This document shows positions 7,841 through 54,044 of a stretch of 64,000 nt of DNA, piece by piece. The notes under the pieces are model-generated. The model did not search any database. It was not told the DNA's origin and saw only the letters and a list, made by a program, of their open reading frames with translations. Numbering within the stretch: the stretch's first letter is position 1; every line of letters starts with the position of its first letter. This stretch comes from Nitrososphaerota archaeon (GTDB lineage: Archaea > Thermoproteota > Nitrososphaeria > Conexivisphaerales > UBA164), in assembly GCA_029786595.1 (NCBI GenBank), contig JAFLXO010000001.1, forward strand, positions 1,332-65,331. The letters are read 5' to 3'. Position numbers and translations under genes: made by a program.

Positions 7841-8167
7841 TCAGGAGACCGGCGAGCCCGTAGCAATATCCTTATCAGGCCTGAGAAGCGACAGCTCCTT
7901 TCCATCAAAGGCAGCCAGTACCATCACCTCAGATTTCAGGCCCATCATCTCCTTGGGCTTGAGGTTTGTCACCACGATCACCAGCTTTCCCACAAGGGAA
8001 GGCACATCATAGTATTTGATTATCCCGGCTATGGCCTGTTTAGTTTCAGCACCTATCTCTATTGACAGCTTGATAAGCTTGGATGAACCCTCTACCTTTG
8101 TGGCCTCCAGGATCCGCCCCACCCTTATGTCCAGCTTCTTAAAATCTTCGAATTCGACGGTGCTCAT
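7841..8167 (-). CDS. tRNA-binding OB-fold protein (Trbp111/MetRS C-terminal-like)
   Basis: DFKKLDIRVG...NLKPKEMMGLKSEVMVLAA. Confidence 0.9.
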   Translation of the reverse strand: MSTVEFEDFKKLDIRVGRILEATKVEGSSKLIKLSIEIGAETKQAIAGIIKYYDVPSLVGKLVIVVTNLKPKEMMGLKSEVMVLAAFDGKELSLLRPDKDIATGSPVS

Positions 8168-8225: not shown

Positions 8226-8346
8226 AAAAGGAAGGGCCGGAATACGACTCAGATTAATGCCTTCAAATCATCAGTATCATATTAACTCTGAATCATCACC
8301 GTCGTACCGCCTTCCCGACCGGGCGTAGCTTTCGCTTTGCCCGGCC
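8226..8346 (-). ncRNA. Box C/D sRNA with extended terminal stem and 5' GAAA-capped hairpin
   Basis: C box GTGATGA (8299-8293), D' ATGA, C' TGATGA, D CTGA (8252-8249); stems TACGAC/GTCGTA and GGAAGG/CCTTCC; TTTTTTTATAA upstream (8369-8379); T-run downstream. Confidence 0.85.
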
Positions 8347-8477: not shown

Positions 8478-9014
8478 TCACTTAGCGCCGCTTTTATAGT
8501 CCATGGCCAGCTTCCTGTAATCCCGGTGCCCGCATCTGGTGCACTTGACGAAGGACCTGCCGGTTGGGACGACTTCGCCTCCACATTTGCTGCAGGAGGT
8601 GAATATAACGCCCAGCTCTGGCTCATCTATTCTCACGAATAGCATAGCGTTCCTGATCAGCTTAACCTTTGCCCTGATGATGTCCCCTTCCCTTCCGGCA
8701 GGGGCATCCCTTACACTGCCTTTCATGTACAATACTGCGGTCTGTTTTACCCCCACGTTCCGGCCATCCAGCTGGTTAATGCGTATGTACACAAAGGGCT
8801 TCTGGACCTGGTCTATCGTCCCCACTATCTCATCATCTGGCTTCGGGAATGGCTTCTTCAACCCGATGGATGTCAGGGACCTGTCCTTCCTGTTGATCCT
8901 GATATTTGCGACCTTTGTAGAATAGATTTCACCGTCGAGCACATATACGTCCCCCCTGGCGTCATATTCCTCAATGACGGCCAATCCTTCCCCCGGTACG
9001 GCCCTGTTGTTCAT
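8478..9014 (-). CDS. csl4: Exosome RNA-binding protein Csl4
   Basis: VPGEGLAVIEEY, S1 domain, CSKCG...CTRCG..RKLA zinc ribbon. Confidence 0.9.
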   Translation of the reverse strand: MNNRAVPGEGLAVIEEYDARGDVYVLDGEIYSTKVANIRINRKDRSLTSIGLKKPFPKPDDEIVGTIDQVQKPFVYIRINQLDGRNVGVKQTAVLYMKGSVRDAPAGREGDIIRAKVKLIRNAMLFVRIDEPELGVIFTSCSKCGGEVVPTGRSFVKCTRCGHRDYRKLAMDYKSGAK

Positions 9015-9973
9015 TTCTGGTCAGACGGTTTACGCGCTTTAGCCTTTGGTTTACCCCTTGGTTTAGCCCTGGACCTGGGTGCGGTGGCAGATTTTTCATC
9101 TTCCGCAGCCTTGCCCTCTACCTTGATTTCTGGAGATGCTTCCTGAGCTTTAGCCTCAGCCTTTGGCTTTTCCTTAGCCCTGGCCCTTGGCTTTGCAGCT
9201 GCGGCCTTTTTCATTGCCCTGGCCCTGGGCTTCGCTTTGGCCTTTGGTGCCTCTATGGGCGCCGCTGCAGGCGTTTCCGCCGTCAACTGCTCGGCGGCTG
9301 ATGGGAGCTCAGCTGGTGCTGCGGCTTCAACTGGGGCTGGTGCTGCCACTGCAACTGGGGCTGGTGCTGTCACTGGAGCAGGCGCTGCCACTGGAGCTTC
9401 GGTCACCGTCGGCTCCGGCTTGGCCACACTCACCTTTTCCTTAACTTCGATTTTAACCTTGGGAGCCGCCTTCCTTTCCTCCTCCCTGCTCGCTGTCCCT
9501 ATGATGGTCCTCACCGGAAGCTTGATCCTGGCAGCTTCAAGGGCGGCCCTGCCCTTAGGAAGGTCCGTATCCCTGACCCTCACTTCTAGGATGGTTGAAC
9601 CGTTCTCAACCCTGGCGGCCAGCCCGACCGGCTTGCCGAAGGCCCGTCTCATGCCTTCCGAGAGGCGGTCCGCACCGGCCGTCGCGACCATCTTATTTTC
9701 CCTGAGCACTACGTGAGGGTAGCTTACCACCCTCAGGTGATAGTTCGGCTCTCCAAGGGGCTCAAGTATCTTGTTGGCAGCGACCCTGGCGGACTCAAGG
9801 GCGTTGTGCCTGATCTGCGCCCTATCCTTGGACTTGAGCGTCAGAAGATAACCATAATTTTCAACCAGCCCCCCCTGTGAAAAGCGGGCCACTCGCGGCT
9901 GAGGAGCCCCGGCTATATACTCCCTCCGTACGTAGGGCATCCCCTTTACTTCCCTATAATTTCTTCCTTTCAA
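9011..9973 (-). CDS. rpl10e: 50S ribosomal protein uL16 (L10e) with long low-complexity C-terminal extension
   Basis: QIRHNALESARVAANK and LRENKMVATAGADRLSEGMRRAFGKP; TTG start at (M)KGRNYR. Confidence 0.93.
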   Translation of the reverse strand: MKGRNYREVKGMPYVRREYIAGAPQPRVARFSQGGLVENYGYLLTLKSKDRAQIRHNALESARVAANKILEPLGEPNYHLRVVSYPHVVLRENKMVATAGADRLSEGMRRAFGKPVGLAARVENGSTILEVRVRDTDLPKGRAALEAARIKLPVRTIIGTASREEERKAAPKVKIEVKEKVSVAKPEPTVTEAPVAAPAPVTAPAPVAVAAPAPVEAAAPAELPSAAEQLTAETPAAAPIEAPKAKAKPRARAMKKAAAAKPRARAKEKPKAEAKAQEASPEIKVEGKAAEDEKSATAPRSRAKPRGKPKAKARKPSDQK

Positions 9974-9977
9974 ACCA

Positions 9978-10727
9978 TCATCCTCTATAATCGGAGGTTT
10001 TAAAAAGATTTGCCTGCCTTCCTTCGGCTCCCCTGGCAAGCGCTATCCTTGTCCTTCTGAGGAAGCCGAGCAGCGTTACAAGGTCCTCCTCCGTCGTAAT
10101 ATAATCCACGGTTATGCCCTTGATGAGCTTCAGCGTCCTTTTCTTCCTTTCTTCGGAAAGGTCAATGCCGTCGGCCACAGCTCCTGCATACTCCAGGGCC
10201 GCGTTCCTTTCCTCCGTTCTGATCCTGGACCTCCTCCTGGAGGCCGGAGTCCCCTTCCAAAGGTAAAGGAGTATGGCCAGGGCGTGTGAGATGTTCAGGG
10301 TCGGATATGCCCTTGACGCCGGTATGGAAATGACATAATCGCACGCTGAAAGCTCCCTGTTGTTCAGCCCGGATACGTCCCTGCCAAGGATCAAAAGCGC
10401 CCTTTTGAACATCCTCGCCCTGCTGAAAGCCGCTTCGGGCGTCATGGCGCGCCTGTTGACGTTCTTTGAGCTGGCGCTGGGCCTGGCGGTGGTCGCCATC
10501 CTCAGGTCAAACTTGGCCACCTCCTCATCGAAGTTTCCCAGGACGGCGTTCTTCACAATCCCCTTAGCGTGGGCTGAAAATTTATATGCGTCCTCCGGAA
10601 GTTCGCTCAGGCCAGTCACTATCAGCTTATCAATTCCGAAGTTCATCATGGTCCTGGCCACATAGCCTATGTTAAGGCCGTACTTGGGCTCAACCATCAT
10701 AACCGAAAGTTCAGTCAATAAGGTCAC
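9978..10727 (-). CDS. trmJ: SpoU/TrmJ-family RNA methyltransferase
   Basis: VEPKYGLNIGYVARTMMNFG, GRDVSGLNNREL, YPTLNISHA. Confidence 0.85.
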   Translation of the reverse strand: MTLLTELSVMMVEPKYGLNIGYVARTMMNFGIDKLIVTGLSELPEDAYKFSAHAKGIVKNAVLGNFDEEVAKFDLRMATTARPSASSKNVNRRAMTPEAAFSRARMFKRALLILGRDVSGLNNRELSACDYVISIPASRAYPTLNISHALAILLYLWKGTPASRRRSRIRTEERNAALEYAGAVADGIDLSEERKKRTLKLIKGITVDYITTEEDLVTLLGFLRRTRIALARGAEGRQANLFKTSDYRG

Positions 10728-37409: not shown

Positions 37410-37583
37410 TCACATCCGGGTCCCCTCCATTTTGCGTGACGGCGCCGTCCCGATGGCAGTTCGGGCAACTGGGCCCTCCGCCAAGGCCTGATACCGGCGG
37501 GGGGCATGGTAGCAGCTGGACTCGCCCACTATTCGGGCCTTAAAACATTTCCCGCTTTCGTCAATACTATATGTCCTTTTCAT
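37410..37583 (-). CDS. Putative 57-aa leader ORF between riboswitch and MFS gene
   Basis: ATG abuts the riboswitch 3' end; stop lies 7 nt before the MFS ATG. Confidence 0.4.
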   Translation of the reverse strand: MKRTYSIDESGKCFKARIVGESSCYHAPRRYQALAEGPVARTAIGTAPSRKMEGTRM

Positions 37584-37667
37584 CAGCTTTCCCTACGCCG
37601 GCATTGCCCGGATCAGGTTCCAAGGGTTAGTCCAACTGGACCTCTCAGCTCTTCGCACCCCTTGCCG
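37584..37667 (-). promoter_or_regulatory. TPP riboswitch
   Basis: AGGGGTGC..GCTGAGA..ACCCTTGGAACCTGATCCGGGCAATGCCGGCGTAGGGAA consensus; TTAAAA promoter-like box at about 37689-37694. Confidence 0.93.
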
Positions 37668-37768
37668 TAAATTGAAAGGAGGCGCACCTTTTAAGCCTTG
37701 CTCATGTTAATCCGGTAGGTCCGTATCAGGACGATATGTTTATGAGGGCCTGATAAGAACTCAGCAAG

Positions 37769-52367: not shown

Positions 52368-54044
52368 TCAGGCTAACCTGCTGGCGAGTTCTGGAAAGAA
52401 GCTGGGCAGCAGCCTGACCCATTCGTCGCCTACGAACATCAGGGTGGCCCTGTCCTCCGGACCCCTTATCGCCCTCCCTACAGCCTGCCTGACCGCTATC
52501 CTGGCCCTTTCAACTACATAGTCCCACTTGACCCTGTCGCCGCGCATCTTCGCCAGGTCATCAAGAAACGGGTCGCGTACGTTTGGGAACGGGACCCCCA
52601 GCAGTATTATGGACTTCAGCGTCGACCTTCCACCGGAGATGAACTCCACCCCCTCGACAAGCTTCCCACCGGCGTGTGCGACTATTACCCCGGAGGTGGG
52701 AGCGTCGCTCGCCAGCGTCCCCCTGCCCTCCACGTACCACCTGTCCTTGAACCAGCCTGCAATCGACTTTGAAGGTGCAACCACCAGCGTAATGCCACCG
52801 CTGTTCGTCCTTCTTTCGCCGTCAATTATCCCGCCAACAAGCTCCTTCACCCTTTCCCTGTCCGCGCTGCGCCTGGAATAGCTCAGTGAAACGCCGGTGA
52901 ACGGCCTGACCGGGGTTATCATCTTCGGATCGGCCGTCCATGACCAGGGCGGCCCTTCGCGTATTATCACGAAGTCCTTCAGCCCAAGGACATCCTTCAT
53001 GTACGCGGCGCTGGGTGGGGTACCGCTCAGGGCAATCCATGGTGGCCCATGAGTCAGCGACCTGGTGAGATAGCCGGGATCAACGGGCCTGAGCCTGATC
53101 TCGGGCTCCCTGCCCTTTATAACATCATCCTCCCTTCCGCTCCTGTGCCAGCGCCACAGGTCCTTCCCCCCTTTTAGTAGCTCCAGCGCCGAATAGAGGT
53201 GGCTCAGCGGGTCAACTTCATCGTCGTCGCCAGCGATGAGCCCGTTGGTTGGCGGGAGGTCGGGCTCATCACCCCCCTTTACCCAGGCCTCCAGCGACCC
53301 TATCCAGGCCCTTGTTTCTTCGCTCCACCTGGGGATGCTTCGGTTCCCGGGCGATGATATGGTCAGGACGTCGGCCTTGTTCTCCGCATAGTCCTTTAGC
53401 CAGCCCAGCCAGGAAGGCGTTATGGATATCTCGGCAAGGCTGTTTATATCAACGAAGTTATGGAACTCATCGAAGATGTGAACTTCACAGCCCGTGTCGA
53501 CCACGCCGGGCAGCAGGAACCTTGCATTATACGTGTAGAGCTTGACCTTTGTGGCCGCCTTCCTTGAAAACCAGTACCCGCACTTCTTACGGTCCCCCCT
53601 TACGAACCGCCTGATCCCAAGCTCCGATATTCGTGAAACTTCGAAGTCGGGCGAATTGTAGACGCAGCTGCCTTCAACGTACATCGACGCAGGCAGGTCG
53701 GACCTGCCCCCCTTCGACGCGCGTCTGGCCCCCTTTACGCATGGAGGCAGGGCGACCGGGAACCCCTTCTTCTGGGCCCTCGCCCATTTGCACACCCTGG
53801 CCTTTCCATAAAGGCCGCTGAAGGTGAGCCCAAGGCTTCTGGCTGCCATTTCCCACGGCTCGTACTGGCTCAGCGTCCTCGTAAATACGGCGCTGCGCCC
53901 GTAGACCGAGTGCGCTGCATAGAGGGAGGTGATGGTCTTACCGGAGCCCGTCGGCATATCCAGCACTACGTTCTTCCCCCTTTTCAGTGCGCTGATGGCC
54001 TCCTTGGCCGCCCGCATCTGGTAATCCCTGAGCTCTACCGTCAA
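52368..54044 (-). CDS. XPD/DinG-like SF2 helicase (divergent)
   Basis: LRDYQ, PTGSGKT, DEFH, LSGT, EGVEF, GVPFP, QAVGRAIR; four spaced Cys. Confidence 0.85.
   Translation of the reverse strand: MTVELRDYQMRAAKEAISALKRGKNVVLDMPTGSGKTITSLYAAHSVYGRSAVFTRTLSQYEPWEMAARSLGLTFSGLYGKARVCKWARAQKKGFPVALPPCVKGARRASKGGRSDLPASMYVEGSCVYNSPDFEVSRISELGIRRFVRGDRKKCGYWFSRKAATKVKLYTYNARFLLPGVVDTGCEVHIFDEFHNFVDINSLAEISITPSWLGWLKDYAENKADVLTISSPGNRSIPRWSEETRAWIGSLEAWVKGGDEPDLPPTNGLIAGDDDEVDPLSHLYSALELLKGGKDLWRWHRSGREDDVIKGREPEIRLRPVDPGYLTRSLTHGPPWIALSGTPPSAAYMKDVLGLKDFVIIREGPPWSWTADPKMITPVRPFTGVSLSYSRRSADRERVKELVGGIIDGERRTNSGGITLVVAPSKSIAGWFKDRWYVEGRGTLASDAPTSGVIVAHAGGKLVEGVEFISGGRSTLKSIILLGVPFPNVRDPFLDDLAKMRGDRVKWDYVVERARIAVRQAVGRAIRGPEDRATLMFVGDEWVRLLPSFFPELASRLA

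Follow-up and report, generated by a model that had tools for sequence, protein, structure and literature searches.

The window (the whole 64,000-nucleotide stretch analyzed here, from a Nitrososphaerota archaeon) carries on its minus strand a box C/D sRNA, whose boxes, as read from the sequence, span positions 8299-8249. The sRNA lies between csl4 and a gene for a methionyl-tRNA synthetase (MetRS) C-terminal domain, on the same strand as both. The features of the locus are as follows:

8299-8293, minus strand: C box, agreeing with the RUGAUGA consensus
8292-8281, minus strand: D' guide of 12 nt; positions -3 to -11 pair with the H69 loop of 23S rRNA, and D'+5 falls on A1913 (E. coli numbering)
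8280-8277, minus strand: D' box, an AUGA variant
8273-8268, minus strand: C' box (UGAUGA)
8267-8253, minus strand: D guide of 15 nt; positions -4 to -11 pair with the H70-H71 junction, and D+5 falls on A1938
8252-8249, minus strand: D box (CUGA)
8315-8301, minus strand: 5' arm of the terminal stem, from the predicted fold
8247-8230, minus strand: 3' arm of the terminal stem, from the predicted fold
8347-8316, minus strand: 5' hairpin with a GNRA-type tetraloop, from the predicted fold, in this genus only
8375-8368, minus strand: TATA-like element, merged with an upstream T7 run at 8379-8373 (sequence reading)
8229-8226, minus strand: short run of four T, a possible 3' end (sequence reading)
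8478-9014, minus strand: csl4, an exosome subunit, the upstream neighbor (NCBIfam NF034126, above cut-off)
7841-8167, minus strand: stand-alone MetRS C-terminal/tRNA-binding domain, the downstream neighbor (TIGR00399, above cut-off)

All four boxes and both guides are present on the minus strand as the earlier note on this DNA had described them. The core of the sRNA has a GC content of 31%, and its surroundings roughly 50%. A consensus C/D'/C'/D pattern, composed after the element had been seen, has a single match in the window and a single one in the 1.6 Mb genome, and 0 of 300 dinucleotide-resampled windows contain it. A genome scan for C and D box pairs recovered 243 candidates, 11 of them with a stem of at least 4 bp and a single one, the focal sRNA, with an rRNA target of at least 9 bp; the corresponding numbers for the reversed genome were 48, 2 and 0. 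The focal assembly (G000) encodes fibrillarin, Nop5 and L7Ae, each scoring above its curated cut-off. The sRNA has the same four boxes, 12-15 nt guides and terminal stem as the archaeal dual-guide box C/D sRNAs that work with L7Ae, Nop5 and fibrillarin (PMC7994747, PMC4644070, PMC6009581), and it is a real archaeal box C/D guide RNA of the ordinary kind. In Rfam no family, sR11, sR20, sR49, SNORD15 and snoR75 included, reaches its gathering score on this sRNA; the best is sR11, at 29.3 against 39 bits, and the best sub-threshold matches are archaeal C/D sRNAs. It is also the single C/D sRNA passing strict criteria in the whole of G000 despite the full protein machinery, and any further ones may be degenerate or unassembled.

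Elsewhere in the window, positions 9011-10039 of the minus strand encode the ribosomal protein uL16/L10e with a long Ala/Pro/Lys-rich C-terminal extension, the ORF being 342 aa long and the domain ending near residue 190. A TPP riboswitch is seen in this archaeal genome at 37572-37672 of the minus strand, scoring 69.8 bits, above the Rfam gathering score. A loose scan, with 3 matches against 1 in the control, further yielded a C/D-like candidate at 53075-53128 (minus strand) with a 10-bp complement to 23S rRNA; we rejected it, as it has no match in 20 relatives and is probably due to chance.

The earlier note had left out the 5' hairpin and the long terminal stem. The hairpin has a predicted energy of -22.4 kcal/mol (z-score -4.81, attained by 0 of 200 shuffles) and is found in G000 and its relatives G001 and G002; it is not evident in the other homologs displayed. 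Together with the long stem it sets this genus apart from the published archaeal dual guides. Examined as an extra-pairing element, the 5' extension has no rRNA complement longer than 8 nt. The box-proximal 6 bp of the terminal stem could be followed through an alignment of 59 of our 72 homologs, in which 83% of the cells are paired and 66 double changes occur, spread over all six pairs; none of 500 shuffles attained this, and controls with slid arms were 26-49% paired. Thus, the terminal stem closing the k-turn covaries.

With respect to transcription, the earlier note had ascribed to the sRNA its own TATA box and a T-run. A TATA-like word, read against the archaeal TATA consensus, is indeed present at 8375-8368, but it falls outside 8226..8346 and merges with the T7 run; it would plausibly serve as a promoter of the sRNA, and the T7 run could mark the end of the csl4 transcript. 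A TATA-like word lies upstream of 31 of the 72 homologs, a count that has no control. The T-run at 8229-8226 likewise exists but has only four T, and is shorter still in G001; it hints only faintly at a termination site. A promoter and terminator scan built for sigma-70, and hence not covering archaeal promoters, found nothing, and three metatranscriptome contig sets from the same study cover only csl4- and rpl10e-like parts, at ~93-97% identity, leaving the sRNA uncovered.

The earlier note had further suggested looking for homologs downstream of csl4 in relatives. These do exist in the focal genus but the direct link is absent beyond it: csl4 is directly adjacent to the sRNA only in genus g1, whereas at 6 loci of genus g2 it is ~1.1 kb away with a P-loop NTPase gene in between. 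The remaining loci of that relative set gave no csl4 match, and a csl4 scan of genome contigs found it at 2 loci only. The gene neighborhoods of the sRNA differ widely among its carriers.

The G000 assembly, which is 83% complete, contains no assembled 16S or 23S rRNA, and the targets were therefore taken from G002 and G001. The complementarity proposed for this genome's own 23S rRNA holds in the near-identical G002, a member of the same genus with 100% identity over the 211-nt element and 99.3% over 2.4 kb. Against the G002 23S rRNA the D' guide forms 9 Watson-Crick pairs (-3 to -11), reproducing the 9-bp antisense match to the H69 loop noted before, and the D guide forms 8 (-4 to -11), the second match having likewise been placed about 25 nt downstream; the two sites are 25 nt apart. 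The D duplex reaches -10.9 kcal/mol, against -14.5 kcal/mol in a typical relative. Each site is the best Watson-Crick match of its guide in the 16S and 23S rRNAs of G002, with one further 9-bp site of equal length when G-U pairs are allowed. Both guides have a Watson-Crick pair at N+5 in this congeneric 23S rRNA, and alignment to E. coli K-12 rrlB identifies these bases as A1913 and A1938, precisely the positions that the earlier note had derived. Its assignment to H69 and H71 stands for the H69 loop; A1938 sits at the H70-H71 junction, outside H71 proper.

Either guide alone is weak against chance, with shuffled guides attaining the observed pairing length in 48 of 1500 and 224 of 1500 cases; both lengths were attained jointly within 100 nt in 1 of 1500. 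Among the 41 genomes searched, 22 have a 23S rRNA, and both target words are present in all 19 loci covering the region (20 were fetched). tRNA targets of at least 7 bp turned up, among 29 tRNA calls, only in one implausibly long intron-bearing call. Positions -2 and -3 of the focal D guide are unpaired, as they are in 23 of 166 homologs, both being paired in 97 of the 166; methylation of A1938 in the focal genus is less certain than the overall prediction.

A direct DNA search found the sRNA core in 14 of 41 genomes. A pattern comprising both guide cores in order plus a D box reached much further, matching 311 of 401 Nitrososphaeria genomes (287 of the 351 of high quality), with 2 matches for the backwards control; this tally includes four unpublished genomes (G131, G230, G282 and G326). 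In a set spanning the phylum it matched 104 of 401 genomes, and 49 of 341 outside the class (backwards control 1). In all these counts, related genomes are not independent. Since the pattern required the guide cores, their invariance in the alignment is partly circular. Parts of the RNA that the pattern did not specify are kept as well: a C box of the form RUGANGA occurs in 55 of 72 homologs, the UG of the C' box is invariant in the 59 aligned homologs, and outside the class 49 of 54 homologs carry NNGA in the D' register.

A covariance model built from the 59-homolog alignment finds one copy in G000. Outside the class it matched 53 of 80 pattern-negative genomes, picked from 292 such genomes to span families. 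Fifty of these model loci were inspected: 34 were identified by script as same-order dual guides and another 2, whose D box is shifted, by eye; of the rest, 1 is swapped, 1 has a divergent D' guide and 12 have a single guide. Within the class it matched 36 of 46 pattern-negative genomes (30 of the 32 of high quality), drawn from 90; both guides are present in 29 of the best 30 of these matches, the remaining one being reported on the opposite strand. A spacing of 3 nt to the D box, although not imposed, is kept in most model matches. Nearly all matching genomes have one copy of the forward form, which is near-universal in the class and present in at least 25 families outside it, with similar box spacing.

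Going by the names of the source genomes, with some families nameless, the carriers include Caldarchaeum (Caldarchaeales), Bathyarchaeia, Brockarchaeota, Nezhaarchaeales, Methanomethylicaceae (Methanomethylicia), Infirmifilum and other Thermoprotei (Thermofilum-like). Within the class they include genomes named Nitrosopumilus and Nitrosocaldaceae, and the flanking proteins of relatives in the focal family carry Nitrososphaeria names. Genomes named Sulfolobus and Caldivirga have single-guide matches. A metagenome scan for the archaeal-type dual-guide pattern, designed to exclude most Nitrosopumilaceae, gave at least 120 matches; one odd metagenome locus carries Thermoprotei names.

The guides also track changes in their targets. 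Of 80 genomes, 43 could be read at the rRNA site: 39 have the standard sequence, 2 a variant, and 2 carry unrelated sequence on the 5' side of the helix. Both H69-loop variants (2 of 43) are matched by changes in the guide: in G527 the bases at 1914 and 1915 have traded places, as have their counterparts in the guide, giving 11 perfect pairs, and in G636 the guide carries a C-to-U change corresponding to G1918A in the rRNA. The exchange at the G527 locus (L332, G527:C2:364411-364452) also eliminates the uridine that bacteria and eukaryotes convert to pseudouridine. Tracking is incomplete elsewhere: 8 of the best 30 model matches have an uncompensated D' guide change, producing an A-C mismatch in all 3 whose rRNA was seen, and G514 has a mismatch within the D guide. 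The eight loci (L251-L253, L255-L257, L259 and L260, of Bathyarchaeia or Brockarchaeota type) have in common a G-to-A change in the D' guide; in those whose rRNA was seen, the A-C mismatch lies opposite C1916. G405:C73:3449-3490 and G423:C1:1313272-1313313 have unrelated but mutually similar sequence immediately 5' of the H69 3' strand, which is probably a 23S intron at this site. The 23S gene of L032 (G019:C1:181978-185440) is ~400 nt longer than those of its relatives, suggesting an intron or insertion.

The family shows two departures from the focal layout. One affects the register of the D' guide: outside the class 49 of 54 homologs are of the A1913 type, with 5 unparsed and none shifted, and within the class (n=54) 21 are of the A1913 type, the focal copy among them, 29 of an A1912 type and 4 unparsed. 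One extra base before the D' box makes the strict rule read A1912 instead of A1913. The A1912 type (loci L078-L095 and other loci of families f7, f12 and f2) includes 18 of 18 Nitrosopumilaceae and some other Nitrososphaeria. The other departure is a swap, in which the A1938 guide occupies D' and the A1913 guide D, found in 13 of 401 phylum genomes (control 0), none of which matched the forward pattern. These comprise loci L335-L344 (in G446, G697, G547, G474, G481, G727, G571, G717, G418 and G607) and three further genomes (G707, G662 and G567); the swapped form occurs in 6 of 8 members of family f36, and each of the 10 swapped loci displayed shows a C box and a short terminal stem.

Both sites have been predicted before in Archaea. 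Sulfolobus acidocaldarius sR113 and Ignicoccus hospitalis sR91 have the same guide core and the same predicted site, A2179 = E. coli A1913, according to Additional file 1 of PMC4644070, where the S. acidocaldarius row prints the position with a typographical error; the text of that paper gives A2178 = A1912. Unlike the focal RNA, they bear this guide at the D box, and in place of the A1938 guide its partner is an orphan (sR113) or targets G2211 (sR91). Conversely, S. acidocaldarius sR125 and I. hospitalis sR109 (predicted A2204 = A1938; PMC4644070) share with the focal RNA the D guide, its position and its predicted site, but their D' partner targets G2172 rather than A1913. Thus, one guide, never both, is shared with each published pair. 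A similar guide occurs at D' in Pyrobaculum sR40 (PMC6009581). H68-H71 is a named hotspot for guides (PMC4644070) and ~45% of Pyrobaculum sRNAs have two targets within 100 nt (PMC6009581), habits in which the focal sRNA agrees with other archaeal dual guides. It differs from them in that the guide pair of its family is conserved across many orders. Archaeal C/D guides are described as turning over fast, conservation holding for hotspots but not for exact sites or guide pairings (PMC6009581, PMC7994747); the majority of guide sequences do not persist over long times, long-range dual-guide interactions are seldom retained beyond the genus (PMC6009581), and no site was common to all seven species compared in PMC7994747, the accessible portion of which makes no mention of Thaumarchaeota. 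Circular permutation within a family (sR56/sR57) and indel-driven migration of targets are both documented in Pyrobaculum (PMC6009581). As permutation and target migration are known mechanisms, it is the depth of conservation that stands out. The main text of a preprint on the Pyrobaculum calidifontis ribosome lists no modification positions.

Our literature searches, some of them weak, returned neither a description of this dual-guide family nor a measurement of Am1913 or Am1938 in an archaeon. About six C/D candidates are reportedly listed in the Nitrosopumilus maritimus genome paper, and a member of the family may already be in print there or in supplements.

The earlier note had equated A1913 and A1938 with yeast 25S Am2256 (snR63) and Am2281 (snR13), guided by separate snoRNAs. 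This fits the published data: yeast Psi2258 corresponds to E. coli 1915 (PMC2794176), which places Am2256 at 1913, and the tabulated pairs Am2256/Am2281 in yeast, Am3739/Am3764 in human and Am2522/Am2547 in Dictyostelium (PMC8817022) are each 25 nt apart, like the focal targets. The published tables assign the two sites to separate snoRNAs in yeast, and likewise in human. Both sites are present in plants, human and yeast in PMC11542601, whose table, in its flattened form, seems to have no Pyrococcus entry. The RNAs for Am2281, namely SNORD15/U15, plant snoR75 and yeast snR13, address the same target in the same register as the focal D guide, and in one homolog (L104) the D guide and D box together agree with the Rfam consensus of SNORD15 and plant snoR75 at all of 15 nt, an identity forced by complementarity to a conserved target. 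These RNAs are otherwise longer and score 10-19 bits against gathering scores of 50-75; the SNORD15 model gives 10.1 bits on the window and 18.8 on L104, against a gathering score of 75. The second site of Arabidopsis U15 is the Gm2288 equivalent (PMC8817022). For Am2256, SNORD46/U46, yeast snR63 and Dictyostelium CD4 target the same base as the focal D' guide, but SNORD46 and snR63 are separate RNAs in human and yeast, and CD4 uses its D box and has one site listed; none of these families gave an Rfam match up to E 10. The paired core of CD4 differs from the D' guide only opposite the single base that differs in the rRNA loop. We considered CD4 as a guide for both sites and rejected this, since the supplement of PMC8817022 lists Am2522 alone. 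A same-order dual guide with the eukaryote-type loop base had 0 metagenome matches with the one exact pattern used.

With its anatomy, its complementarity to 23S rRNA, its conservation, its covarying stem, two guide-target compensations and the genes for its protein machinery, the element is very probably a functional archaeal dual-guide box C/D sRNA, predicted to methylate A1913 and A1938 of pre-23S rRNA. By the established C/D rules, L7Ae would bind the C/D k-turn and the D'/C' k-loop, Nop5-fibrillarin would join, and the two guides would pair with pre-23S rRNA 25 nt apart to direct 2'-O-methylation of A1913, in the H69 loop at the subunit bridge and in contact with A-site tRNA, and of A1938 at the H70-H71 junction. 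That the locus is instead a 3'-UTR element of the csl4 operon, without function or with a structural one only, might be read from its GC-rich hairpins and its placement downstream of csl4 on the same strand; the sRNA is conserved whatever its gene neighbors, its stem covaries and its guides compensate for target changes, which largely refutes this reading, and we give it a negligible chance. It is unlikely, though worth weighing, that in the focal genus A1913 alone is methylated and the shortened D guide acts mainly as a second anchor or folding chaperone that ties H69 to the H70-H71 junction, Am1938 being scarce or absent. Consistent with this, the D duplex has 8 bp with the target base in the second pair from its box-proximal end, the guides remain linked even in swapped order, and a chaperone role has been proposed for dual guides (PMC6009581, PMC7994747). 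Yet the 3-nt D-box spacing recurs in most model matches without being imposed, the unpaired -2 and -3 positions are shared with 23 of 166 homologs, and duplexes of 8-10 bp are reported to be highly active (Yang 2016, as cited in PMC7089733), so that one of 8 bp can suffice. A chaperone function may accompany methylation. The persistence of the guide linkage even after the swap suggests a benefit from one particle binding both sites.

As to the history of the family, conservation favors an age at the depth of the phylum, to which extent the 'ancient' in the earlier note's proposal of an ancient shared modification is supported; the family was probably present near the root of Thermoproteota, likely of a single origin, with the two guides kept linked in one RNA. 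The pair might instead have arisen repeatedly, conserved sites 25 nt apart attracting guides and shuffling uniting them, with the forward and swapped forms being convergent. Guide sequences are fixed by their target, composite and transposed sRNAs are documented (PMC6009581), these guides have other partners in Sulfolobus-, Ignicoccus- and Caldivirga-type hosts, and the gene neighborhoods vary widely. Still, we hold recurrent assembly to be unlikely, in view of the single-copy, near-universal presence of the forward form in the class, its similar box spacing in at least 25 further families and the within-family permutation known from Pyrobaculum sR56/sR57. The other part of the proposal, a shared origin with eukaryotes, fares less well: one sRNA on both sites does not prove it, and it is not supported, given that guide sequence is dictated by the target and that the guides published for Sulfolobus and Ignicoccus are on separate sRNAs. 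Direct descent of snR63/SNORD46 and snR13/SNORD15 from the focal RNA by splitting would accommodate the 15-nt identity of L104, the departure of CD4 from the D' guide only opposite a variable rRNA base and the wide retention of both Am sites in eukaryotes (PMC8817022, PMC11542601); with that identity forced by the target and the metagenome search for an intermediate empty for its one exact pattern, such descent is possible but unsupported, and we think it quite improbable. Only slightly less doubtful is a composite scenario in which an RNA from the root of the phylum, its guides selected as a clamp folding H69 onto the H70-H71 junction in 50S assembly, persisted despite circular permutation in part of the phylum and, in the ammonia oxidizers, a slip of its target by one base, and was ancestral to the split eukaryotic Am2256/Am2281 snoRNAs.

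For the reading that we prefer, a functional dual guide of phylum depth, the chemistry is ordinary and both sites had already been predicted in Sulfolobus and Ignicoccus, on separate sRNAs; what stands out is a guide pair conserved far deeper than published surveys implied. By itself the focal family does not demonstrate descent of eukaryotic snoRNAs from this RNA. It is absent from Rfam and merits a family there. Among cultured hosts, Nitrosocaldus-type copies predict Am1913, and Nitrosopumilus-type copies Am1912 unless a base is bulged out. A single-copy dual guide across Nitrososphaeria, Caldarchaeales, Bathyarchaeia, Brockarchaeota, Methanomethylicia and some Thermoprotei stands as a counter-example to fast guide turnover, and two ribose methylations at the subunit bridge, conserved in eukaryotes and predicted here, would date at least to a deep ancestor of Thermoproteota.
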